Shown piece after piece: positions 18,670 through 41,621 of a stretch of 64,000 bases of DNA (position 1 is its first letter; the number at the start of each line of letters is the position of its first letter). The DNA is from Escherichia coli (lineage in GTDB: Bacteria; Pseudomonadota; Gammaproteobacteria; Enterobacterales; Enterobacteriaceae): the NCBI RefSeq assembly GCF_050320075.1, contig NZ_CP190018.1, one strand, 5' to 3'. A program made the translations under genes and the position numbers. The notes under the pieces were generated by a model that was not told where the DNA came from, did no database searches, and saw nothing but the letters and a program-made list of their open reading frames with translations.

Positions 18670-18903
18670 ATGTCAACGAAGAACAGAACCCGCAGAACAA
18701 CAACCCGCAACATCCGCTTTCCTAACCAAATGATTGAACAAATTAACATCGCTCTTGTTCAAAAAGGGTCCGGGAATTTCTCAGCCTGGGTCATTGAAGC
18801 CTGCCGCCGGAGACTGTGCTCAGAAAAAAGAGTTTCGCCTGAAGCAAACAAAGAAAAGAGTGACATTACTGAATTGCTCAGAAAACAGGTCAGACCAGAT
18901 TGA
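18670..18903 (+). CDS. YlcI-like small prophage protein
   Basis: 77-aa ORF MSTKNRTRRTTTRNIRFPNQMIEQINIALVQKGSGNFSAWVIEACRRRL... resembles the DLP12 ylcI product. Confidence 0.6.
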   Translation: MSTKNRTRRTTTRNIRFPNQMIEQINIALVQKGSGNFSAWVIEACRRRLCSEKRVSPEANKEKSDITELLRKQVRPD

Positions 18904-18960
18904 AGCAATTTAGATAATCGTGCAGACTACGCCCCCTCATATCACATGGAAGGTACTACA

Positions 18961-19371
18961 ATGGCTCAGATTGCCATTTTTAAACAAATATTCGATAAAG
19001 TGCGAAATAATTTAAACTATCACTGGTTTTATTCTGAACTAAAACGTCACAATGTCTCACATTACATTTACTATTTAGCCACAGAGAATATTCATCTTGT
19101 TCTTGAAAACGATAATACGGTTTTAATAAAAGGACAGGGTAAGGTTGTAAATGTAAGATTTTCAAAAAATAAATGCCTTATAGAAGCCACCTTAAAAGGA
19201 TTCAAATCAGGAGAGTTATCATTTTACGAATACAGGAAAAATCTTGCTACAGCAGGGGTTTTCAGATGGATTACAAATATCCACGAAAACAAAAGGTATT
19301 ACTATACCTTTGATAATTCATTACTCTTTACTGAGAACATTCAGAACACTACACAAATATTTCCGCACTAA
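18961..19371 (+). CDS. YbcV-like prophage protein (DUF1398 family)
   Basis: [58 protein letters not shown]... resembles DLP12 YbcV; low GC. Confidence 0.65.
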
Positions 19372-19678
19372 ATCATAACGTCCGGTTTCTTCCGTGCCAG
19401 AACCGGACTCGCTGGCATGATGAAATATGTGTACCCGGTAACCCCGGTGTGCATCGTTTTTGATTATTCCCCCACACTTGTGCAGAAGGAGTTCCCCGTC
19501 AGGCTACAGTCATAATTAATGCAAGAGTACAGCGACGATACAGCGCACAGAAATAAATCAGGTATCCATTGACTTCACAAAGACGGTACATAGCATCGAC
19601 AGGAGTAATTGCGTAAATTGAACTCTTGGCACACTTTAGCCACCGGCGAATCTTCAGCGGATTATCCTTGGCCGGTTT

Positions 19679-20155
19679 TTATCTGAGGCATTGCTCTCGA
19701 ATGTATAGCTGTGCCCCTTCAAGTTGTTTTTGCATTATTATCAGTCGCGCTCTGAGGGTGAAATAATCCCGTTCAGCGGTGTCTGCCAATCGGGGGGAGG
19801 CTGCATTATCCACGCCGGAGGCGGTGGTGGCTTCACGCACTGACTGACAGACTGCTTTGATGTGCAACCGACGACGACCAGCGGCAACATCATCACGCAG
19901 AGCATCATTTTCAGCTTTCGCATCAGCTAACTCCTTCGTGTATTTTGCATCGAGCGCAGCAACATCACGCTGACGCATCTGCATGTCAGTAATTGCCGCG
20001 TTCGCCAGCTTCAGTTCTCTGGCATTTTTGTCGCGCTGGGCTTTGTAGGTAATGGCGTTATCACGGTAATGATTAACAGCCCATGACAGGCAGACGATGA
20101 TGCAGATAACCAGAGCGGAGATAATCGCGGTTACTCTGTTCATTGCTGACCCCAC
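19679..20155 (-). CDS. Rz: Spanin inner-membrane subunit Rz (i-spanin); likely true start near 20143
   Basis: (...)[59 protein letters not shown]... matches lambda Rz. Confidence 0.9.
19741..19923 (-). CDS. Rz1: Spanin outer-membrane lipoprotein Rz1 (o-spanin), embedded in Rz in the +1 frame
   Basis: 60-aa [63 protein letters not shown]: lipobox LVVVGC and proline-rich segment as in lambda Rz1. Confidence 0.88.
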
Positions 20156-20637
20156 AAACAGATTTCACGCTCAATCTCACGACGAGTCATGAGACCTTTC
20201 CATTGCTTACCGCCAGCATATGTCCAGCGACGTAACTGATCACATGCGCCTTTGATATCGCCCTGGTTTATTTTGCGAAGAAGCGTCGATGTTCTGAAAT
20301 TGCCAGCACCCACGTTGTAAACGAATGAGTAAAGAGCGCCGCGCGTTGTTTCCGGTATATCGACTTTGATGTACGGGTTAATTTGTCTGGCGACAGTGGC
20401 AAGGTCTTTATTCAAGAGTGCTTTGCATTCTGCTTTGGTATACGTTTTACCGAGCATGATGTCTTTTCCTGTATGCCCGTGACATACAGTCCATACACCA
20501 ACAATATCTTTGTATGGTATGTAGCTGACACCCTCCAGACCATCGTTACCACCTGGACCAGTGATTAACACTGATGCTATAGCAATTGCTCCGCCACCAA
20601 TAGCAGCAGCAACGGCTTTTCGTAATGATGGAGGCAT
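20140..20637 (-). CDS. R: SAR endolysin (T4-lysozyme-family muramidase with N-terminal signal-arrest-release domain), phage-21 R type
   Basis: 165-aa [60 protein letters not shown]...: Gly/Ala-rich weakly hydrophobic N-terminus followed by a lysozyme core; not the lambda R transglycosylase. Confidence 0.88.
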
Positions 20638-20852
20638 TATTCACCTCTCGCAGCCTTGCGCTTATCTTCTTTAATCTTGAAATAAAGGTTTGTCAGGTAC
20701 GTCAGCAGGCCAAATACCAAGCTACCCAGCACACCTATTGCTGCCCACTGTGAGGGCGTGACTTTATCGAGCAGCTGTAAAAACCAGTAGCCAGCACTGC
20801 CTGCGGAGGTGCCGTAGGCAATGCCCGTTGTTAACTTATCCATGGATTTCAT
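20637..20852 (-). CDS. S: Pinholin S (class II, two TMDs, dual-start motif MKSM), phage-21 S type
   Basis: 71-aa [74 protein letters not shown] directly upstream of the SAR endolysin. Confidence 0.88.
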
Positions 20853-21045
20853 AGCCTCACCTCCGCAAATAACGGATGGTGTACACGGTTCGGAACGAAG
20901 AGGAAAGGTATAGAAGTTACATTAGCGTAAGGCTTGAACATCTATTCAAAAAGAAAAACGCCAGCGATTATTCTGGCGTAGCTGAAAGCATCATACAATT
21001 ATCAAATACGAAAATTACAAAATCATTAAAACGCATCACGTTACA

Positions 21046-21627
21046 TCATGTCTTTTCTAAAAAAAATCTTGATGAATATTGATGGGGAGGAACACCAAAA
21101 TATCTTCTGAAAACACTTACAAAATATGACGTGTTTTCATAACCGCATATCTCAGCAACTTTTCCAACAGAATATAAATTGTAGCTTAATAACCTTTCCG
21201 CCATCACCATTCGCTCTTCAAGAATTAACTTACTAAATGATAAGCCTTCGTGCTTTAATTTTCTTTTTAACAGACTTTCACTCAGATACAGTCTTGAAGA
21301 TATATCACAAAGTCTCCATGCTGCAGATATATCCGTGTGAATAATAGCCTTAACTTTACTTCCTAAACTATTAAGACATCCAAATAAAAAACTTTGCACT
21401 ATTTTCTCTGAAGATAAGATAGCAAGACATGCAAGTGATATTTGATTTCTAACAAAATCCACAGTTCTGCCATCACAATTCAAGCATGCAATCAAGTTCT
21501 TTAACAATGAAAAATCTTCACATTCCACCATCAAGTATGCCGGATAAAACCTTCTTACAGAAAAAGGTGAGAGTGTGTTGCTTTTAAAGAAATCATTAAC
21601 TGTTTTCTCTTCAACATCTACGATCAT
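21046..21627 (-). CDS. AraC-family transcriptional regulator (prophage cargo)
   Basis: 193-aa ORF with C-terminal AraC-type HTH region (...LSYNLYSVGKVAEICGYENTSYFVSVFRRYFGVPPHQY); ~30% GC. Confidence 0.75.
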   Translation of the reverse strand: MIVDVEEKTVNDFFKSNTLSPFSVRRFYPAYLMVECEDFSLLKNLIACLNCDGRTVDFVRNQISLACLAILSSEKIVQSFLFGCLNSLGSKVKAIIHTDISAAWRLCDISSRLYLSESLLKRKLKHEGLSFSKLILEERMVMAERLLSYNLYSVGKVAEICGYENTSYFVSVFRRYFGVPPHQYSSRFFLEKT

Positions 21628-22121
21628 TGCATGATCTATATTTGATGAAAAAAATCTTTTAAATTTTAATCAATGAGAACAGCACTTCCTTTTTTAAATA
21701 AAATATCTTCTTTACCAATTCGGACATCAAACGAGTTCAACACCAAAATGATAGAACATATGTATGGCATATTATCCACCTGATATCATTGGGGTTACAC
21801 CAAGTAAGTATAGGTGGAAAATCAATATTCGCCAGTTCAACAATAAGGAAAATCTCATTGCATCACAAGTATAAAATTATGTATTTAACTCACAAAGACA
21901 AATTATTAAACCAATCTGTTATATTATATATAGCTGCGTGGAATCATAATATTATATATTTTGACTGGCATGTTTACCAACTTTAAGTTGCATCTCAATG
22001 GTTTCTTCAGCGTAAACAGAGTTTTTATACAAACTGACACTCTGGGTATCATAGTGTAGTTTTTACGATTGTAAATATCCTGCATGCAGGAACTCATCCT
22101 TTTGGATGATATCGCATACAA

Positions 22122-23081
22122 TTAATTTACCATCAGTCTTAGAGCCAGTTCGTCCGGATAGGGATCGAAGTAATTCTGTGTAAGCAAGTAATCATTAGGA
22201 TACTCACCCAGATAATGCTTCAGCAGAGTCAACGGCGCAAGAAGAGGTAATGTGCCAGAACGATAGTTAAGTATAACCTCGCTCAACTCTTTACGCTGGC
22301 GTGTACTTAAGTAGTTACTAAAATACCCCTGTATATGCATCATCACATTCGTGTGATTTTTACGTGATGCAGGTTTTCTGAGAATCGCCATCAGCTTATC
22401 ACGATACACCTCAAAGTATGATTCAAGGTCCGCCCACTCGTGTATTGCAGCCACAAATGGTCCCATATCTTTATAGCCTGCCTGACTATGCGCCAACAAC
22501 TGAAGCTTATAACGACTATGAAAAGCTAATAACTCTCTTCTTGATAATTTCTCCTTGTAAAGGTGATTGAGCTCATGCAAAGCAAAAACTCTTTCAACAA
22601 AATTCTCACGAAGCACTGGATCATGTAATCGCCCATCCTCTTCAACCGGTAGCCAGGAAAACTTTTCCATCAAAGTGCTCGTAAATAGTCCCACTCCATC
22701 TTTACGACCTCGATTACCATTTTCATCATAGACACGCACGCGCTCCATGCCACAGCTGGGAGATTTAGCACAAACCACAAACCCCGATACATCCTTTAAT
22801 TTGTCCATATAAGAACGACTAAACTCTGTCATTCTCTCTGTCACATCCTCATTCTGGTCGTGGCTGAAACACATCCGTATATTTCCTTGCGTCGAGCGCA
22901 CAAGACGTAGAGCAGGACGCGGAACTGGCAGCCCTATAGCCATTTCCGGACATACTGGTCTGAATGTTACCCATTCCACTAATTTGTCCATTAAAAAGTC
23001 AGCTCTTTTGTGACCACCATCAAAACGAACAGCAGAACCGGCCAGACAACCGCTGATTCCAATCACAGGTTTTTTTATCAT
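22122..23081 (-). CDS. DUF523/DUF1722 (YbgA-like) family protein, Cys-rich N-terminal half (prophage cargo)
   Basis: 319-aa ORF MIKKPVIGISGCLAGSAVRFDGGHKRADFLMDKLVEWVTFRPVCPEMAIGLPVPRPALRL... resembles YbgA-type DUF523-DUF1722 proteins. Confidence 0.7.
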   Translation of the reverse strand: MIKKPVIGISGCLAGSAVRFDGGHKRADFLMDKLVEWVTFRPVCPEMAIGLPVPRPALRLVRSTQGNIRMCFSHDQNEDVTERMTEFSRSYMDKLKDVSGFVVCAKSPSCGMERVRVYDENGNRGRKDGVGLFTSTLMEKFSWLPVEEDGRLHDPVLRENFVERVFALHELNHLYKEKLSRRELLAFHSRYKLQLLAHSQAGYKDMGPFVAAIHEWADLESYFEVYRDKLMAILRKPASRKNHTNVMMHIQGYFSNYLSTRQRKELSEVILNYRSGTLPLLAPLTLLKHYLGEYPNDYLLTQNYFDPYPDELALRLMVN

Positions 23082-23273
23082 ATCCTCCCCCTTGACTAAT
23101 TCATTAACACATAAACTGTGTAGTGCACGGAATAAATTGCCTTTCTGGCGTCATCACTGACAATTTTTCTGTTATGGACTATTCCTAATATAGTATGAAA
23201 GTTCTTTAAGTGATCGGTCGTAATCATCTATCTTTCATACTTACTCTCAACTATCAAAAGTACAGGATTTATT

Positions 23274-23798
23274 ATGAAGTTATGGCCTGTGTTGACTGGC
23301 ATTGCACTCTCTTTCACTCTTATAGCATGTAAGGCCCCGACACCACCTAAAGGTGTGCAGCCGATTACAAATTTTGACGCCAACCGCTACCTCGGAAAGT
23401 GGTATGAAATAGCTCGCCTCGAGAACCGGTTCGAACGTGGTCTGGAACAGGTCAGCGCTACTTATGGAAAACGGAACGACGGAGGGATTCGTGTACTTAA
23501 CCGTGGATACGATCCAACGAAAAATAAATGGAGCGAGAGCGAAGGTAAAGCATACTTTACTGGAGATACTAAAACTGCAGCGTTGAAGGTTTCGTTTTTT
23601 GGCCCCTTCTATGGTGGCTATAATGTAATCAAACTGGATGATGAGTATAAGTATGCTCTTGTCAGTGGTCCGAACAGAGAATACCTATGGATTCTGGCAA
23701 GGACCCCAACTATTCCAGATAAAGTAAAAGCAGACTATGTGCGAACCGCTCAAAAGTTGGGATTCAATGTCAATGAATTATTATGGGTTAAACAATAA
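23274..23798 (+). CDS. Bacterial lipocalin (Blc-like outer-membrane lipoprotein) paralog (prophage cargo)
   Basis: 174-aa ORF with lipobox LIAC and NFDANRYLGKWYEIARLENRFERGLEQVSATYG...KVSFFGPFYGGYNVIKLDDEYKYALVSGPNREYLWILARTPT, closely resembling E. coli Blc. Confidence 0.85.
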   Translation: MKLWPVLTGIALSFTLIACKAPTPPKGVQPITNFDANRYLGKWYEIARLENRFERGLEQVSATYGKRNDGGIRVLNRGYDPTKNKWSESEGKAYFTGDTKTAALKVSFFGPFYGGYNVIKLDDEYKYALVSGPNREYLWILARTPTIPDKVKADYVRTAQKLGFNVNELLWVKQ

Positions 23799-23835
23799 AA
23801 TCCCTACCCGAAATAATACTTATTAGAATAAATAT

Positions 23836-23859
23836 CCTCCGGCATAGCCGGAGGTTTTT
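23836..23859 (+). terminator. Rho-independent terminator downstream of the lipocalin gene
   Basis: CCTCCGGCATAGCCGGAGG hairpin followed by TTTTT. Confidence 0.7.
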
Positions 23860-23865
23860 CAAATG

Positions 23866-24575
23866 CGCCTATAAGGCTCTCTTACCAGCCGCGCCCTAAC
23901 AGGCGCACACGATCTGACATTTGCATCCAACTTCGTTACTTACGGCCCGTAAACGGGCTGCCCGGATAGGGAATCGATAACTGCTCTCCCATTTTATCCT
24001 CTTCAAGCTGGTGCTTTATGTAGTCCTGTATCTTCGCCGTGTTCTTACCCACCGTATCGACATAGTACCCTCGGCACCAGAACTCCCTGTTTCTGTATTT
24101 GAATTTCAAATCCCCAAACTGCTCGTAAAGCATCAGACTGCTTTTCCCTTTCAGATATCCCATAAAGCCGGATACGCTCATTTTGGGTGGGATTTCCACA
24201 AGCATATGGATATGATCTGCGCAGCACTCTGCTTCCAGAATCCGTACGCTTTTCCACTCACACAGCTTTCTCAAAATACTGCCTATCGCCCTACGCTTCT
24301 CTCCGTAAAACGCCAGTCTTCGGTATTTCGGCGCAAAAACTATGTGATATTTACAGTTCCAGCGGGTGTGCACTAAGCTCTTTTCGTCCCCCATTGGGAC
24401 CCCCTTTTGATTTCTTGTTTGACACTTGCAGTTGCCAGACCGCAAGGTGTTTTAACAAATCAAAAGGGGTTTTAATAACTGGCTCAAAGCTGAAAGCTTT
24501 CCGGAACCCCCAGCCTAGCTGGGGGTTTTCTGTGCACAAAAAAACCAGCCTTTGGGGAGGCTGGCTAAATCAGGA
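23866..24575 (-). mobile_element. IS200 insertion sequence (boundaries approximate)
   Basis: Contains the IS200 TnpA gene plus end hairpins (GGCCCGTAAACGGGC near 23945; CCCCCAGCCTAGCTGGGGG and CCAGCCTTTGGGGAGGCTGG near 24500..24570). Confidence 0.8.
23936..24394 (-). CDS. tnpA: IS200/IS605-family Y1 (HUH) transposase TnpA
   Basis: MGDEKSLVHTRWNCKYHIVFAPKYRRLAFYGEKRRAIGSILRKLCEWKSVRILEAECCADHIHMLVEIPP... matches IS200 TnpA (152 aa). Confidence 0.93.
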   Translation of the reverse strand: MGDEKSLVHTRWNCKYHIVFAPKYRRLAFYGEKRRAIGSILRKLCEWKSVRILEAECCADHIHMLVEIPPKMSVSGFMGYLKGKSSLMLYEQFGDLKFKYRNREFWCRGYYVDTVGKNTAKIQDYIKHQLEEDKMGEQLSIPYPGSPFTGRK

Positions 24576-24664: not shown

Positions 24665-25057
24665 TTATTTCGAACAATCAGCATCCATCTCCAATCGGAG
24701 ATCCAACACCATCAGCATACCCTCCACTACGCCCTCAGCTTTCTGGAGCATCCTGCCAACCCAACAATCAGATCGCCCATGCTTACGTGCAAGCGCCATA
24801 AAAGTCATGCCGCCGACATAATAGTCCACCAATAAATCATGCAAATCGCTGTTGTTCTTTTTCAGACGGGCCATGCACCCGCAAATGATCATCGCGTCAT
24901 CGTCACAACATTGTGGGCGAGATTTTACTTTTGAAGGAATTAATCCCTTAAAACCGGCGGCAATGGACGACCAGGTCACATCTTCATGATTATTAGCCGC
25001 CCACGCTCCCCAACGCTCAAGAACCATCTGAATATCACGCATCAACTTACTCCACAA
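24665..25057 (-). CDS. Late-gene antiterminator Q (phage-82 / DLP12 QuuD type); possible start at the MRDIQM Met
   Basis: ORF (MWSKL)[62 protein letters not shown]... resembles QuuD. Confidence 0.8.
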
Positions 25058-27236: not shown

Positions 27237-27905
27237 CGTTACACCTTATATAAATACCCCTCAGTAATATCCAATAAGGTATGTGCACAATCAATATAAT
27301 TTTATCCGTATCGGCACATAGCGATTTGAAGGCTACTGGTAATAGTATATTTTAGATTATATCGTCCAGTTTACAGCACCCGTATTTTATGAAATGGACT
27401 CGCATATTACCCAAAAAATGCCAGCACTTCCGTCATCGTAGAATGCTGGCAGTATTTCTAACTAGTGACTTTATTGGAACAGATTCTGACGGAAATATGG
27501 TAACACTCGACTCCACTTATCATCCAGCCACGGCTGGAATTTTACATGTGCCGTTTATCTGGCGAGGATTGCTCGCGCTCTGTTGAGTATCTGGGGATAT
27601 TCATGCTCGATAGAAGTAAAGCGGCCGGCTTCGCGGTGCTCCGCAACCTGAAGTAGTGGAGTAACGTTCTGGCAGGCAGTTAACATCACATCACCTGCTC
27701 GCCATAACCAAGCACGTGCACAAAGTTTGTTATCAGTGAATTGTTTTGTGATTGGGTATTGTTGAACTGCTAGAACGAGAACGCCAGCATCCATTGGCAG
27801 TCCCTATAGTAAAACCATAGCTCAGGACGCTTCGTTCAGGATAGATAATTTTATTGTACTTACCTAACTTTCTTACTATAGCACGGTTGAAAAAGTGATT
27901 ATTAC

Positions 27906-29432
27906 TCAAAAATAAACCTCACCATCAACCATATATTTGAGAGTACTTATCGCCTGCTGGGCGGATATTATTTTCATTAAAGGATAGTGTTTAAAAACAA
28001 TGCCATTCATAAAATAGATATCACAGGTTTTATTATCTGTATTGATTATGATTTTTTCGAATGTTTTATAGGCAAGTGTACGACATAGCTCTCGCCCATT
28101 TTTACTGGTTAAGTCAATAGCATGAAAATCACCAAGTGAACTCACCGCTTTACTCTTCAAAGTTTTTAATGATACAGAAGCCCTTCGTAATTCCTTATCT
28201 AATACTCTGATTTTTTCTGCTATAGCGGTAACTTCAGGCGCAACAGATAATGCAGCAATTAAATTATTAATTTTCATCTGGAGCTCAATAATTTTCAACT
28301 CTAAAGTTTCATTAGCATCTTTCTTGTTTTCAACTGGTTGGATTTTACTACAATTAAAAAGCAACTCATTAATGATATTATAATCAACCAAATCTCTCTT
28401 TATTGATGGCCTGTCACATCGATGCAGTCTTCTCATCGGACAAACATAATAGCCATGCAAACTTCCAGATACCGCATGAACAATCATGGTATTACCACAA
28501 GCCTCGCACTTCATAACTGTTCGAAGTAGATTTATCAACATAGGATTTTTGCTACTATTGCTAATACCAAAAGGTGCCAACCGAATTTCCTGCACAGCGT
28601 AAAACAAATCATCTGATATGACTCTGGGATAATAGCCAGCGATTTCACTTATTCCTTTACCTCTTGCACGATATGAAGGTACGCATATACCTATCAGAGC
28701 TTTATTCGCTAATAATTTTTCAATTACAGAAGGTCCCCATGCACTTTCTTTTCCTGAGAAATTCTTTACAGCATGATCATTTAAATACTTGGCTATTGCA
28801 TTCAATGAGCGCCTTTCCATCCTGAGTTTAAAAATTAGCTCAATAGTTTTCACCCTGTCGGGGTCTGGAACAAAAGCCGTTCTTTTGTCATCCAATGAGA
28901 GCCATCTCGGACAAGACGCCGTCATAATCGTGCCTGACTCCAGTGCATCCTGCCGTTTTTTCTTCCATGATAATTTAACCCGACTTGACTTTATCTCGCT
29001 TTCTTCATTTGCCCTTTGTGCTATAAGTATGGCTTTTATTAATGAATATGGCTCATTCAATGAGTCAATATTATAGACTGTATTATCGCAAAGAGTTATA
29101 ACATCAATACCGTGATTCAAAATCAATTTCAGACGCTCAATCGCTTCACCGACTTTTTCTCTTGAAAGTCTGTCCAGACTTTCAACTAACAATGTAGTCC
29201 CTGGCAATATATAACCATGTTCTATAGCATCTAAAAATTCCGAAAAAGCTCCTGATTGTGCATGCTTTCCATTGAATGCGCTTAACCCCAAATCTTCATA
29301 CGTTACGGTATCAAGGTAATAATCACTATTTACCTTTAGCCATTCAGTAATAAGCCTTCTCTGGCGGTTTAATGAATCACCAGACATCTGACCTGGTGAT
29401 GAAAATCGCATATATGCTATGGCTTTTTTCAT
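27906..29432 (-). CDS. Large serine recombinase (resolvase/invertase catalytic domain plus recombinase and Cys-rich zinc-ribbon-like domains), DLP12 YbcK type
   Basis: 508-aa ORF MKKAIAYMRFSSPGQMSGDSLNRQRRLITEWL... (catalytic Ser in RFSSPGQ) with downstream CEACGN...CPMRRLHRCDRP cysteine cluster; low GC. Confidence 0.85.
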   Translation of the reverse strand: MKKAIAYMRFSSPGQMSGDSLNRQRRLITEWLKVNSDYYLDTVTYEDLGLSAFNGKHAQSGAFSEFLDAIEHGYILPGTTLLVESLDRLSREKVGEAIERLKLILNHGIDVITLCDNTVYNIDSLNEPYSLIKAILIAQRANEESEIKSSRVKLSWKKKRQDALESGTIMTASCPRWLSLDDKRTAFVPDPDRVKTIELIFKLRMERRSLNAIAKYLNDHAVKNFSGKESAWGPSVIEKLLANKALIGICVPSYRARGKGISEIAGYYPRVISDDLFYAVQEIRLAPFGISNSSKNPMLINLLRTVMKCEACGNTMIVHAVSGSLHGYYVCPMRRLHRCDRPSIKRDLVDYNIINELLFNCSKIQPVENKKDANETLELKIIELQMKINNLIAALSVAPEVTAIAEKIRVLDKELRRASVSLKTLKSKAVSSLGDFHAIDLTSKNGRELCRTLAYKTFEKIIINTDNKTCDIYFMNGIVFKHYPLMKIISAQQAISTLKYMVDGEVYF

Positions 29433-29687: not shown

Positions 29688-30020
29688 TTAATGTGGCGTG
29701 CTTCGTGACAATAAATTAATAACCAACACACCGGCACAAATCAACATCATGCCTATAATGGCTGGCAGGTCCAATCGTTGGCCGAAAAATCCCCATGATA
29801 GTAAGCTAATCAGGACAATACCGACTCCTGACCAGATAGCATAAGCAATCCCTGTAGGAATATAAGCCAGCGTCTGAGCTAATAACCAGAATGATGCACA
29901 ATAACAAATAATTGTACCAACAGATGGCCATAACCGTGTAAAACCTTCTGAAAACTTCATTAAGGTTGTACCAATGACCTCTGCAAGTATTGCACCACCA
30001 AGATAAATATAAGGATTCAT
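29688..30020 (-). CDS. emrE: Small multidrug resistance (SMR) efflux protein EmrE
   Basis: MNPYIYLGGAILAEVIGTTLMKFSEGFTRLWPSVGTIICYCASFWLLAQTLAYIPTGIAYAIWSGVGIVLISLLSWGFFGQRLDLPAIIGMMLICAGVL... essentially identical to E. coli EmrE (110 aa). Confidence 0.95.
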   Translation of the reverse strand: MNPYIYLGGAILAEVIGTTLMKFSEGFTRLWPSVGTIICYCASFWLLAQTLAYIPTGIAYAIWSGVGIVLISLLSWGFFGQRLDLPAIIGMMLICAGVLVINLLSRSTPH

Positions 30021-33807: not shown

Positions 33808-35415
33808 ATGGATATGTCAAAAAAAATTTTTGAATTCAAAAATTACCCAATAGTCTTTATTGGCTCAGGCATTTCAAAAAGATATTTAGAGAACTACCCA
33901 ACGTGGGAAGAGCTATTAAACGAGTATTGGAAAATAACAAATCCCACAAATGATTTCTATAGTTATCTTTTAACAATAAAAGAATCACATAAAAATAACA
34001 GTGATAATGATATCGATCATAAGATTTATACAGAGGCAGCAAGTAAAATTGAAAATGATTACAATCTATTGTTTAGGACTGGCAAATTAAAATTAAATGG
34101 ACTAGATGCCAAGAGGGTTTTTAGTGAAGATATTTCACCATTTAAATACGCCATATGCCAAAGATTTTCTAATAACACAATCAGAAAGGATGTAAATCTT
34201 GATGAATTAGCATCATTTAAAACATTAATAAAAAAGGCCAAGATAATCATCACTACAAATTATGATGCTTTCATAGAAAATTTACTTCAAGAGCAAAATG
34301 TAACTCCAAAACTCTATATTGGAAATAATGGTTTTTTCGAAGATACTATTGGCTGGAGTGAGTTATACAAAATACATGGTGATATAAAGGATCCACACTC
34401 AATAATCATAAATAAAGATGATTACGAAAAATATGACAACAAATCTATACTCATTAGTGCCAAGATACTATCTAACATGATTAAAAATCCAATAGTTTTT
34501 CTTGGATATTCTTTAACTGACAGGAATGTAAAGAAACTTCTTTCTGATTTTTCCTCACAACTACCTAGAGAAGATGGTCGAAAATCAGCTGAAAGAATAA
34601 TTTTGATTGAATATAAAGAGAATGAACAGGAAGTAGTACCAAAACAGATTACCGATCAACAGCTACAAATTACATATACATCTGTTAAAACAGATAACTA
34701 TAAACAGATCTATGATGAGATCAGTGCTGTTGATGAAGGGCTCTCACCTTATGATGTTTTAAGGTATCAAAGAGCCATTAAAACACTTATCATTAATGAG
34801 GGTGAAAAAGGGCACTTAGATACTCTATTGGTTTCACCTTCTGACTTAGACAGACTTGAAGAAAGTGTTAAACAAGGAAAAAATTTAGTTGTTGCTCTAG
34901 GCGATAAAAAGTATGTATTCACACAAGTTAAAGAAATAAATTATCTTGAAGACTACTTATTTAATAAAAATGAAATATCTAATAAATTAGCTATAGATTT
35001 CATATTAGGTTCAGTAAACTCATTACAACTTCCATTTTCAAAAACTATAACCTCATGTAATTTGAAAGAGTTAAGTTTGCCAGCTAAATATGTGTTAAAA
35101 CTAAATCAACGCATTGAACGCCACGGAAAACTAGACGACTTGCTCAATAAAATCACCTTAGATAAAATCAATGCAAATAAAATTTACACCAACATCAAAG
35201 ATATAAAGGATGCAAAGTTCAAAAAGTACAAAGAATTGTCTATAGTCATTAAGAACATAAAAAATATCCCCAAAGAGGAGATTGAAGATTATGTTAAAAA
35301 AGAAGCGTTTGTTCAATTCAAGGCATGCGACGTTGACAATTTAAAAACCCAGTATAGGAAACTATTTCTTGCCTACGACTTGTTGATTCATGGAAATGTT
35401 GAAAAGATAAATTAA
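33808..35415 (+). CDS. SIR2-like (sirtuin-family, SIR2_2-type) domain protein with uncharacterised C-terminal half; candidate single-gene anti-phage defence protein in the rexAB-equivalent position
   Basis: 535-aa ORF, about 28-30% GC; motifs FIGSGISK (res 17-24), IIITTNYD (N151), YKIHGD (H190), IVFLGYSLTD (229-238) with Asn-His spacing of 39 as in defence-associated SIR2 domains; directly downstream and co-oriented with the repressor. Confidence 0.7.
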   Translation: MDMSKKIFEFKNYPIVFIGSGISKRYLENYPTWEELLNEYWKITNPTNDFYSYLLTIKESHKNNSDNDIDHKIYTEAASKIENDYNLLFRTGKLKLNGLDAKRVFSEDISPFKYAICQRFSNNTIRKDVNLDELASFKTLIKKAKIIITTNYDAFIENLLQEQNVTPKLYIGNNGFFEDTIGWSELYKIHGDIKDPHSIIINKDDYEKYDNKSILISAKILSNMIKNPIVFLGYSLTDRNVKKLLSDFSSQLPREDGRKSAERIILIEYKENEQEVVPKQITDQQLQITYTSVKTDNYKQIYDEISAVDEGLSPYDVLRYQRAIKTLIINEGEKGHLDTLLVSPSDLDRLEESVKQGKNLVVALGDKKYVFTQVKEINYLEDYLFNKNEISNKLAIDFILGSVNSLQLPFSKTITSCNLKELSLPAKYVLKLNQRIERHGKLDDLLNKITLDKINANKIYTNIKDIKDAKFKKYKELSIVIKNIKNIPKEEIEDYVKKEAFVQFKACDVDNLKTQYRKLFLAYDLLIHGNVEKIN

Positions 35416-41606: not shown

Positions 41607-41621
41607 TTAGTATAAAAAAGC
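41607..41621. other. attL core (15-bp lambda att core, GCTTTTTTATACTAA on the minus strand) with the P' arm toward int
   Basis: Plus strand TTAGTATAAAAAAGC at 41607..41621; P'-arm sequence (minus strand ...GTTGGCATTATAAAAAAGCATTGCTTATCAATTTGTTGCAACGAACAGGTCACTATCAGTCAAAATAAAATCATTA) at 41534..41606; host ybhC-side sequence to the right. Confidence 0.85.

Follow-up and report, generated by a model that had tools for sequence, protein, structure and literature searches.

A lysis cassette of the phage 21/DLP12 type, with a probably phage 21-like mechanism, in a lambdoid prophage of Escherichia coli

In a 64,000-nucleotide stretch of Escherichia coli DNA (hereafter the window), four genes on the minus strand, running from the S start codon at 20852 to the Rz stop at 19679, form a cassette that is very probably the late-gene lysis module of a lambdoid prophage at att-lambda. 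The module is of the phage 21/DLP12 (essD-rrrD-rzpD-rzoD) type and, by analogy with its relatives, would act by a phage 21-like mechanism. This reading best explains what we observed of the genes, namely their presence, intactness, families, motifs, near-identity to known counterparts, purifying selection and prophage context, and published accounts of the pinholin/SAR endolysin/spanin pathway agree with it (PMC9636201, PMC9239132, PMC6139136). The cassette is real but ordinary, since its genes are nearly identical to those of phage 21 and K-12 DLP12 and occur in most E. coli genomes; the pathway itself is already known.

Results

The ends of the cassette, taken from the ORF listing and the raw sequence, coincide exactly with those given in the initial annotation (19679–20852), to which we add the minus strand. 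S encodes a long product of 71 residues starting at M1, the antipinholin form (20637..20852, minus strand; ORF and PF04971), and a second ATG at 20843 would yield the short product of 68 residues starting at M4, the pinholin form (20637..20843, minus strand). The following gene, R (20140..20637, minus strand; PF00959), encodes a SAR endolysin of 165 residues, a GH24 lysozyme. Rz (19679..20143, minus strand; PF03245) encodes the i-spanin, the inner-membrane subunit of 154 residues, and Rz1 (19741..19923, minus strand; PF06085), in the +1 frame inside Rz, encodes an o-spanin lipoprotein of 60 residues. Both junction overlaps are kept, TAATG between the S stop and the R start and ATGA between the R stop and the Rz start. 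All four gene products pass their Pfam cut-offs by wide margins, far above chance, and the lysis genes carry no inactivating mutation. RefSeq names the window's S, R and Rz essD, rrrD and rzpD; Rz1 (rzoD) is missing from the RefSeq annotation of an identical strain, which could be corrected by adding the embedded gene.

S matches the family 'Bacteriophage P21 holin S' (PF04971) over residues 5–67 at 120.9 bits (cut-off 26; 2e-35). Its N-terminus reads M1-K2-S3-M4, so that the second start is the fourth codon and Lys2 is an extra basic residue of the long form only. The dual start in a 71-residue S had been proposed in the initial annotation; it can be read directly from the sequence, and the same two codons are labelled as the starts of antiholin S71 and holin/pinholin S68 in the expert-annotated records of phages 21 and 434, which name the homologues of the other three genes SAR endolysin, i-spanin and o-spanin. 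Residues 7–28 are uncharged, with a mean Kyte-Doolittle value of 0.71 and 55% Gly, Ala, Ser or Thr, the profile of a SAR-type first transmembrane segment (TMD1) as in S21. Residues 31–58, also uncharged, form a strongly hydrophobic TMD2 with a 17-residue Kyte-Doolittle peak of 2.02. The two-segment topology is thus assigned from composition only, with the same profile as that of S21. The absence of two transmembrane helices had been named as grounds for rejecting S, and a plain hydropathy cut-off indeed returns TMD2 alone, since the hydrophobicity of TMD1 is weak, as it is in S21; composition recovers TMD1 as well, and the hydropathy test is too blunt for this protein. TMD2 retains G40, S44 and G48, which we take to be the GxxxSxxxG helix-packing motif of pinholin TMD2 known from phage 21.

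S is identical at 62/71 residues (87%) to phage 21 S and at 70/71 (98.6%) to phage 434 S and K-12 EssD; the figure of 70/71 also holds for the S of PhiR11_1, like 434 a functional phage. On sequence, the allele therefore classes as DLP12/434 'EssD' type and not as the phage 21 allele (62/71 residues; 77% nucleotide identity). S is under strong purifying selection, with pN/pS values of 0.03–0.10 and pS of up to 0.74 (against phage 21). For S21, small (~2 nm) depolarising channels, triggering by energy poisons and no release of soluble endolysin are documented (PMC9239132, PMC9636201).

The Shine-Dalgarno sequence of S lies within a predicted hairpin (20858..20881, minus strand; stem CACC-TCCGT / GCGGA-GGTG), which is a candidate for translational control of the S71:S68 ratio. 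The hairpin is kept in phage 21, phage 434 and K-12 with one compensatory change from an A-U to a G-C pair. Statistical support for it is weak: the folding z is −0.17 and the covariation term +0.48, and the three distinct sequence types supply a single compensatory pair. Homology to phage 21 begins at 20883, immediately upstream of the hairpin.

R matches PF00959 (Phage_lysozyme) at 155.2 bits (cut-off 22.3; 1e-45). Its first 28 residues are identical to those of R21, and residues 8–27, which precede the catalytic domain, include 7 Ala and 4 Gly, with Gly, Ala, Ser or Thr making up 65% of the stretch. The predicted arrangement of a Gly/Ala-rich SAR segment fused to a lysozyme domain is thereby borne out. 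Loss of the catalytic residues would have spoken against R being an endolysin; E35, D44 and T50 are all present, and the triad E35-X8-D44-X5-T50 is intact. E-X8-D-X5-T is defined as the motif of GH24 endolysins in PMC9239132. The proposed alignment with phage 21 gave 62/71 identical residues for S and 163/165 for R. The crystallised phage 21 SAR endolysin (PDB 3HDE; also 3HDF) differs from R at two positions only (163/165, 98.8%; G29/S and T98/M), as does K-12 RrrD (PDB 4ZPU; 163/165; G29/S and I159/V), and the R proteins of phages 434 and PhiR11_1 likewise match at 163/165. Gly29 is found here in place of Ser29 in six compared sequences (phage 21, 434, K-12, PhiR11_1, IdasGreatGrand and 3HDE). 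Strong purifying selection acts on R as well (pN/pS 0.04–0.07 against phage 21, K-12 and IdasGreatGrand).

Rz matches PF03245 at 178.9 bits (cut-off 25.4; 5e-53), has an N-terminal transmembrane segment at residues 4–24 and retains C99 and C152; the role of these spanin cysteines is described in PMC6139136. Its ATG at 20143 aligns with the Rz starts of lambda and phage 21. A GTG at 20155, chosen by the ORF finder, gives an upstream extension only and was rejected as the start. Rz is identical at 147/154 residues (95.5%) to lambda Rz, at 145/154 to phage 21 Rz and at 148/154 to PhiR11_1 Rz, and in its last ~20 residues it does not differ from the Rz tail of phage PhiR12_1. Judged from these alignments, Rz appears chimeric, with a lambda/21-type body and a PhiR12-type tail. 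We considered the divergent 3′ end as damage and rejected this, since the tail retains Cys152 and recurs in ~230 E. coli genomes as well as in PhiR12_1, a functional phage.

Rz1 matches PF06085 at 71.3 bits (cut-off 27.9; 5e-20). It carries a VVGC lipobox with C20, consistent with the o-spanin consensus [LVI][ASTVI][GAS]C (PMC6139136), as well as C29, and 10 of the 41 residues from C20 onward are Pro. As initially annotated, it lies wholly within Rz; in the +1 frame it occupies 0.47–0.87 of the length of Rz, comparable with the typical span of embedded o-spanins, from 0.4–0.5 to 0.9–1.0 of the i-spanin gene (PMC6139136). Rz1 is identical at 59/60 residues to its phage 21 counterpart and at 58/60 (96.7%) to that of lambda, and carries G60D. 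There is a small possibility that the chimeric Rz, together with G60D in Rz1, alters spanin pairing.

The cassette follows the operon logic of lambda, with a dual-start holin, an endolysin and an embedded two-component spanin, and from the Rz ATG onward the DNA is 95% identical to lambda. The lambda-like Rz/Rz1 and the lambda-like prophage backbone are the only points in favour of a canonical system, with a large-hole holin and a soluble cytoplasmic endolysin. However, lambda S is a holin with three transmembrane segments and lambda R is a soluble transglycosylase, and neither is homologous to its counterpart here, where S belongs to the P21 holin family and R is a GH24 enzyme with a SAR N-terminus. 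Forced global alignment of S and R with those of lambda gave 22% and 19% identity, no DNA homology between the S/R regions was detectable, and homology to lambda sets in precisely with the Rz start codon. A lambda-type system is thus already refuted, and we give it practically no chance. The contrast with lambda drawn in the initial annotation holds, with unrelated S and R beside Rz and Rz1 at 95.5% and 96.7% identity. The module exchange that it proposed is also real, as the onset of lambda homology at the Rz ATG shows, but it is not new. Phage 21 has the same mosaic, its Rz and Rz1 being 97–98% identical to those of lambda (149/153 and 59/60), so the locus represents a long-known exchange.

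Phage 21 (GenBank OL657228) resembles the cassette in gene order, gene lengths, overlaps and the MKSM dual start, with homologous DNA that sets in 31 nt upstream of S, covers the entire cassette and ends close to the Rz stop. Nucleotide identity, however, is 77% for S and 97.6% for R, which points to a recombination boundary at the S/R junction. The flanks also differ. Phage 21 carries two tRNA genes and has only ~330 nt from pR′ to S, whereas the window has 3.8 kb of cargo and IS200 and no tRNA gene, either between Q and S or anywhere else in it. The Rz tails are unlike, and bor, downstream of Rz in phage 21, is absent here, where 140 bp separate Rz from the ybcV-side homology compared with 446 bp in lambda.

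K-12 DLP12 (essD-rrrD(ybcS)-rzpD-rzoD) and phage 434 carry one identical cassette, which matches that of the window at 70/71 residues in S, 163/165 in R and 58/60 in Rz1, with 94.8% DNA identity over 1176 bp. The K-12 nin/Q block upstream (ybcN-ninE-ybcO-rusA-ylcG-quuD) is shared at 94%. By contrast, nmpC (with IS5) lies between Q and S in DLP12/434, where the window has lipocalin and YbgA genes, an AraC-like pseudogene and IS200; Rz starts with GTG in K-12 and 434 and with ATG here; and borD is present in DLP12, while the window has no bor. S allele, R, Rz body and Rz tail each have a different nearest relative, the mark of tidy lambdoid recombination at gene boundaries.

The cassette lies in an apparently complete lambdoid prophage at att-lambda, with int/xis, replication, head and tail genes through J. 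The att core lies at 41607–41621, and the remaining tail-fibre genes are present in a 100%-identical strain. The cargo comprises a lipocalin gene, a YbgA-family gene, a SIR2-like candidate defence gene and emrE. The locus can serve as a marker of this lambda-like prophage and its cargo genes, a prophage that looks complete and may be inducible.

This context bears on whether the cassette has been domesticated, as proposed for K-12 DLP12, with low, Q-independent expression from a local promoter and with host roles in peptidoglycan turnover, control of outer-membrane vesicles and biofilm besides or instead of phage release. S and R are 98.6–98.8% identical to K-12 EssD and RrrD, which are reported to serve the host in producing OMVs and maintaining the cell wall (PMC7918800). 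Copies at ≥80% coverage are retained in 3312 of 5426 complete E. coli genomes, and 3.8 kb with IS200 and two terminator-like hairpins insulates S from Q. DLP12, however, sits elsewhere in the chromosome and is a defective remnant, whereas the prophage here is full-length, and ordinary phage lysis is the simpler reading because int, xis, replication, head and tail genes and the att core are all kept. Further arguing against domestication, a promoter scan found no consensus-type match on the S strand within ~1 kb upstream of S, and plaque-forming phages have the same cassette type and cargo layout. Many isolated phages carry a copy of the cassette, with near-identical copies in hundreds. We consider domestication unlikely and retain phage lysis as the probable role of the cassette.

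Upstream, the QuuD-type antiterminator gene Q (24665..25042, minus strand; RefSeq 'antiterminator Q family protein'; ORF) is 94% identical in DNA to K-12 ybcN-quuD, and its product presumably drives late transcription into the cassette. A terminator scan found a hairpin (24543..24566, minus strand) with a 9-bp stem and a T7 run, a candidate tR′, ~100 nt downstream of Q. The late promoter pR′ probably lies just downstream of Q, yet a sigma-70 consensus scan of the 100 nt that separate Q from the hairpin found no convincing late promoter, hand-picked candidates matching at 7/12 positions. The Q–S gap of ~3.8 kb holds IS200, the lipocalin/YbgA cargo and the broken AraC-like gene, whose decay indicates some erosion of the prophage. 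IS200 lies in sense orientation in the late-operon leader, directly after the tR′-like hairpin, and contains the RNA element STnc490, the only match in an Rfam scan of the window; the same scan found no known phage late-leader RNA there. A second terminator-like hairpin follows the AraC-like pseudogene ~105 nt upstream of S (20958..20979, minus strand; terminator scan), and late transcripts bound for S would have to traverse it.

The same Q, lipocalin, YbgA and AraC-like genes precede 21-type S-R genes in temperate phages IdasGreatGrand (PP925829), 1H12 and the Lambda_2E9 group, with cargo DNA 99% and 89% identical to that of the window, the 99% being for IdasGreatGrand. Unlike the window, these phages are without IS200. 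IdasGreatGrand further differs in having an intact AraC-like gene of 243 aa, a different Rz (91/154) and a phage 21-like S allele. Because IdasGreatGrand and 1H12 share the Q–cargo–S layout, so great a distance from Q to S need not keep a phage from functioning.

These comparisons also bear on whether the cassette is intact but silent, in a lysis-defective prophage that is becoming cryptic, with IS200 and the cargo terminators blocking late transcription. IS200 sits directly after the tR′-like hairpin, a hairpin also present in the otherwise 99% identical IdasGreatGrand but with no IS200 behind it. Strain YZLc1-3, a 100% match, has acquired an extra 2.7-kb ISCro1 at the IS200 spot, an element that the window lacks. 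The neighbouring AraC-like gene is a pseudogene. Q-modified polymerase of lambdoid phages, however, crosses intrinsic terminators over many kilobases, for example in the stx region of 933W-type phages, and such passage argues against a block. Moreover, IS200 lies downstream of the hairpin, outside the Q-to-hairpin interval where Q would load, and the lysis genes have escaped inactivation. A silent cassette is accordingly quite improbable in our view, and an expressed lysis module is the reading that we carry forward.

Discussion

For expression and the dynamic membrane steps, we infer a course of events from the phage 21 system, which has been dissected experimentally and to which the cassette is nearly identical. 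Upon induction, RNA polymerase modified by Q would start just downstream of Q and transcribe the ~3.8 kb to S-R-Rz/Rz1, passing the tR′-like hairpin, IS200, the cargo genes and the second terminator-like hairpin on the way. S would be translated from both starts, and the 68-residue pinholin would build up in the inner membrane; in the 71-residue form, the extra N-terminal Lys would slow the exit of the weakly hydrophobic TMD1, making it the antipinholin. Once TMD1 has left the bilayer, TMD2 oligomers may form heptameric pinholes of ~2 nm that collapse the proton-motive force. R would meanwhile be exported by Sec and kept inactive by its Gly/Ala-rich SAR segment. Depolarisation would free it into the periplasm, where it would refold and cut peptidoglycan through the E35/D44/T50 site. 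Rz, anchored in the inner membrane and bearing coiled coils, and the outer-membrane lipoprotein Rz1 would assemble into a complex bridging the periplasm, which, with the wall gone, would fuse both membranes and finish lysis.

The copy lies only a few residues away from characterised genes, and its importance beyond correct annotation is slight. The lack of bor and the exchanged Rz tail are small local departures.

Two features of the interval deserve mention in their own right. IS200 with its own terminator structure, and the second terminator-like hairpin, could cut late transcription if antitermination is imperfect. The IS200 terminator is believed to shield the element from outside transcription. 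It is conceivable, if improbable, that Q-antiterminated polymerase overrides this terminator, in which case the IS200 transposase and the YbgA cargo located downstream would be expressed in step with prophage induction.

Organization of the lysis cassette

The lysis cassette was confirmed to be of the phage 21 type, with minor corrections. It lies on the minus strand, which the initial annotation left unstated, and the limits it had been given, 19679-20852, run exactly from the Rz stop codon to the S start codon. According to the ORF listing and the raw sequence, S (20852..20637, minus strand) encodes 71 aa beginning with MKSM. It is followed on the same strand by R (20637..20140, 165 aa), by Rz (20143..19679, 154 aa) and by Rz1 (19923..19741, 60 aa), the last being embedded wholly within Rz in the +1 frame. 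The ATG at 20143 aligns with the starts of lambda and phage 21 Rz, and the GTG at 20155 chosen by an ORF finder was rejected as a mere upstream extension. In the raw sequence, the stop codon of S overlaps the start codon of R in TAATG, and that of R overlaps the Rz start in ATGA; lambdoid lysis operons typically have such compact junctions. All four genes are free of frameshifts and premature stops. For the sequence-identical E. coli strain YZLc1-3, RefSeq (PGAP) annotates essD, rrrD and rzpD and leaves out the embedded Rz1/rzoD (19741-19923), which is an annotation gap and not a biological difference.

Protein families and diagnostic residues

In a Pfam search scored against curated cut-offs, all four products were far over threshold: S matched PF04971, "Bacteriophage P21 holin S" (120.9 bits, cut-off 26), R matched PF00959, Phage_lysozyme (155.2 bits, cut-off 22.3), Rz matched PF03245 (178.9 bits, cut-off 25.4) and Rz1 matched PF06085 (71.3 bits, cut-off 27.9). 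R is identical at 163/165 residues both to the phage 21 lysozyme structure 3HDE (differences G29/S and T98/M) and to the K-12 RrrD structure 4ZPU (differences G29/S and I159/V). The assignment of R as a lysozyme depended on its catalytic residues, and E35, D44 and T50 are all present in the arrangement E35-X8-D44-X5-T50, the triad motif defined previously (PMC9239132). The proposed signal-arrest-release (SAR) segment at its N-terminus was likewise borne out, as residues 8-27 are 65% Gly/Ala/Ser/Thr, a composition characteristic of SAR segments.

S had been described as having two transmembrane helices. Two uncharged stretches were found: one, at residues 31-58, is strongly hydrophobic (Kyte-Doolittle peak of 2.02 over 17 residues), and the other, at residues 7-28, only weakly so (Kyte-Doolittle mean of 0.71, 55% Gly/Ala/Ser/Thr). 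A naive hydropathy threshold detected one helix, which does not refute the two-helix reading, because TMD1 in the phage 21 model is itself a releasable SAR-like helix and a single detected helix is what that model expects. S21 profiled in parallel gave the same TMD2 peak and uncharged segments. In TMD2, G40, S44 and G48 are conserved, a motif to which significance is attached in phage 21. Rz has an N-terminal TMD at residues 4-24 together with Cys99 and Cys152. In Rz1, VVGC (C20) fits the lipobox consensus, Cys29 is present and the mature part is rich in Pro; the roles of these spanin residues have been described (PMC6139136).

Comparison with lambdoid relatives

The reference set comprised expert-annotated phage collection records OL657228 (phage 21) and OL657227 (phage 434), plus lambda and DLP12, the cryptic prophage of K-12. 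The two records label the homologous genes antiholin S71, class II holin S68, SAR endolysin, i-spanin and o-spanin. S is identical at 62/71 residues to that of phage 21 and at 70/71 to those of 434 and DLP12, and R at 163/165 to all three, whereas the 22% (S) and 19% (R) obtained with lambda come from forced alignments of unrelated proteins. Rz is identical at 145/154 residues in phage 21, 142/154 in 434 and DLP12 and 147/154 in lambda, and Rz1 at 59/60, 58/60 and 58/60, respectively. DNA homology with phage 21, 434 and K-12 sets in 11-31 nt upstream of S and ends no more than 10 nt from the Rz stop, whereas that with lambda starts precisely on the ATG of Rz (position 20143). A canonical holin/endolysin system of the lambda type is therefore refuted, and has practically no chance of being correct, given the Pfam families, the match of R to 3HDE and 4ZPU, the unrelated S and R of lambda and the homology starting at the Rz ATG.

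The initial annotation also saw module exchange here. Relative to lambda this holds, as S and R are non-homologous, Rz/Rz1 are ~95% identical and the boundary falls at the Rz start codon. It does not hold as a feature specific to this locus, since phage 21 already has lambda-like Rz/Rz1 (149/153 and 59/60 residues identical to lambda), and RzRz1 of the two phages are handled together in the spanin literature (PMC6139136). Within the cassette (20140-20852), S shares 77% DNA identity with phage 21 and the neighboring R 97.6%, which places a mosaic boundary between S and R; the S allele is of the DLP12/434 "EssD" type. The last ~20 residues of Rz diverge from the lambda/21 type, keep Cys152 and match exactly those of Rz in the functional phage PhiR12_1; this tail comes from a third lineage. 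The C-terminal residue of Rz1 is D in place of G. Such fine mosaicism is routine among lambdoid phages.

In lambda, phage 21, 434 and DLP12, Rz is followed by bor. The gene was searched for downstream of Rz in the window and was absent, with 140 bp in place of the 446 bp of lambda (19548-19760). This bor-less junction occurs in ~230/5426 complete E. coli genomes and, at ≥99% identity, in ~210, among them NU14 and the type strain ATCC 11775.

A copy of the cassette at ≥80% coverage is present in 3312 of the 5426 complete E. coli genomes, with partial matches in 5209; 562 records of the phage collection match it, 51 of which cover at least 80%. Given this prevalence, the existing RefSeq names and a functional study of the DLP12 version (PMC7918800), the cassette is already known, and "established knowledge" was an apt basis for the reading.

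Proposed lysis mechanism

The lysis mechanism of phage 21 is established (PMC9636201, PMC9239132, PMC6139136), and we assigned it to the window cassette on the near-identity of the proteins. S68 would build up in the inner membrane until TMD1 leaves the bilayer, whereupon TMD2 would form heptameric pinholes of ~2 nm, through which the proton-motive force would collapse. S71, which bears an extra N-terminal positive charge, would act as the antipinholin and delay this pinhole step. R would be Sec-exported and remain membrane-tethered and inactive until freed on depolarization, then refold and degrade the murein, after which the Rz/Rz1 complex would fuse the inner and outer membranes. The Shine-Dalgarno sequence of S lies in a predicted hairpin (20881..20858) that would sequester it. 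Phage 21, 434 and K-12 keep this hairpin, with one compensatory pair; its statistical support is weak. The hairpin may be the translational control element for the S21 dual start that was reportedly described by Barenboim et al. in 1999 (cited in PMC9636201).

Integrity of the cassette and its prophage

Synonymous divergence far exceeds non-synonymous divergence in S and R: S versus phage 21 gave pS 0.74 and pN 0.076 (ratio 0.10), and R gave pN/pS of 0.04-0.07 against three references. Near-identical lysis proteins occur in plaque-forming phages; those of PhiR11_1, propagated on K-12, are identical at 70/71 (S), 163/165 (R) and 148/154 (Rz) residues.

The window is E. coli chromosome, 99.99-100% identical to YZLc1-3 apart from an extra ISCro1 in that strain. 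The cassette belongs to a lambda-like prophage, one end of which is an exact lambda att core, GCTTTTTTATACTAA, at 41607-41621, adjoining int/xis and the host gene ybhC; the other end, seen in YZLc1-3, abuts ybhB-bioA. The integration site is thus the classical att-lambda, between bio and gal. From ~41.7 kb to 64 kb the DNA is ordinary chromosome, running from ybhC past the mod and gal operons to zitB. The prophage has the full usual set of modules, namely int/xis, red/gam, the repressor region, O/P/ren, the nin block, Q, lysis, terminase and head/tail through J; the nin block is DLP12-like, with a QuuD-type Q. A domesticated host role like that of DLP12 is compatible with phage lysis too, but with a prophage this complete there is no need to invoke it, and we consider it unlikely.

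The Q-to-S interval

Q (25042..24665, minus strand) lies ~3.8 kb from S. About 100 nt after Q is a terminator-like hairpin (24566..24543), directly followed on its 3' side by an intact IS200 (23833-24537) in the orientation of late transcription, within which lies the Hfq-binding element STnc490 of Rfam (24404-24527). In YZLc1-3, the additional ISCro1 sits inside this IS200, at approximately 24124-24131 of the window. A cargo island (21046-23798) sits where other lambdoid phages have stx or nmpC. It carries a Blc-like lipocalin (23274-23798, plus strand), a YbgA-family protein with 2-thiouracil desulfurase and DUF1722 domains (22122-23081, minus strand) and an AraC-like pseudogene (21046-21770, minus strand), disrupted by a premature stop and by the loss of 1 nt near 21654. 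Another terminator-like hairpin (20979..20958) lies ~105 nt before S. The isolated phages IdasGreatGrand, 1H12 and the Lambda_2E9 group have the same cargo ahead of a 21-type S gene, without IS200; in IdasGreatGrand the IS200 site is empty and the AraC-like gene is intact (243 aa). Since isolated phages carry the Q-cargo-S layout, it is compatible with a functional phage.

IS200 and the cargo terminators could in principle silence transcription of the cassette. However, the presumed Q-loading region is upstream of IS200, and polymerase modified by Q resists terminators, so that silencing is disfavored and appears improbable. A consensus scan for the late promoter gave no convincing candidate; we infer that it lies between Q and the first hairpin.

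Other genes of the prophage

A ylcI-like gene (DUF3950, 18670-18903, plus strand) and a ybcV-like gene (DUF1398, 18946-19371, plus strand) separate the lysis cassette from the terminase genes. Both are on the other strand and are placed as in DLP12. Between ren and the nin region are genes for a ybcK-type serine recombinase (27906-29432) and the multidrug efflux protein EmrE (emrE, 29688-30020), both of which K-12 DLP12 also has in such placement. At ~27471-27794 is a pseudogene for a P22AR C-terminal domain, interrupted by an internal stop; the coordinates of these last three features were converted from the YZLc1-3 annotation. The immunity region encodes, beside an XRE-type repressor, a 535-aa SIR2-family protein (33808-35415, plus strand) that matches PDC-S25, a candidate defence family of PADLOC (E = 6e-236). 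The protein includes a ThsA-like SIR2 segment and is probably the product of a prophage-borne anti-phage gene.
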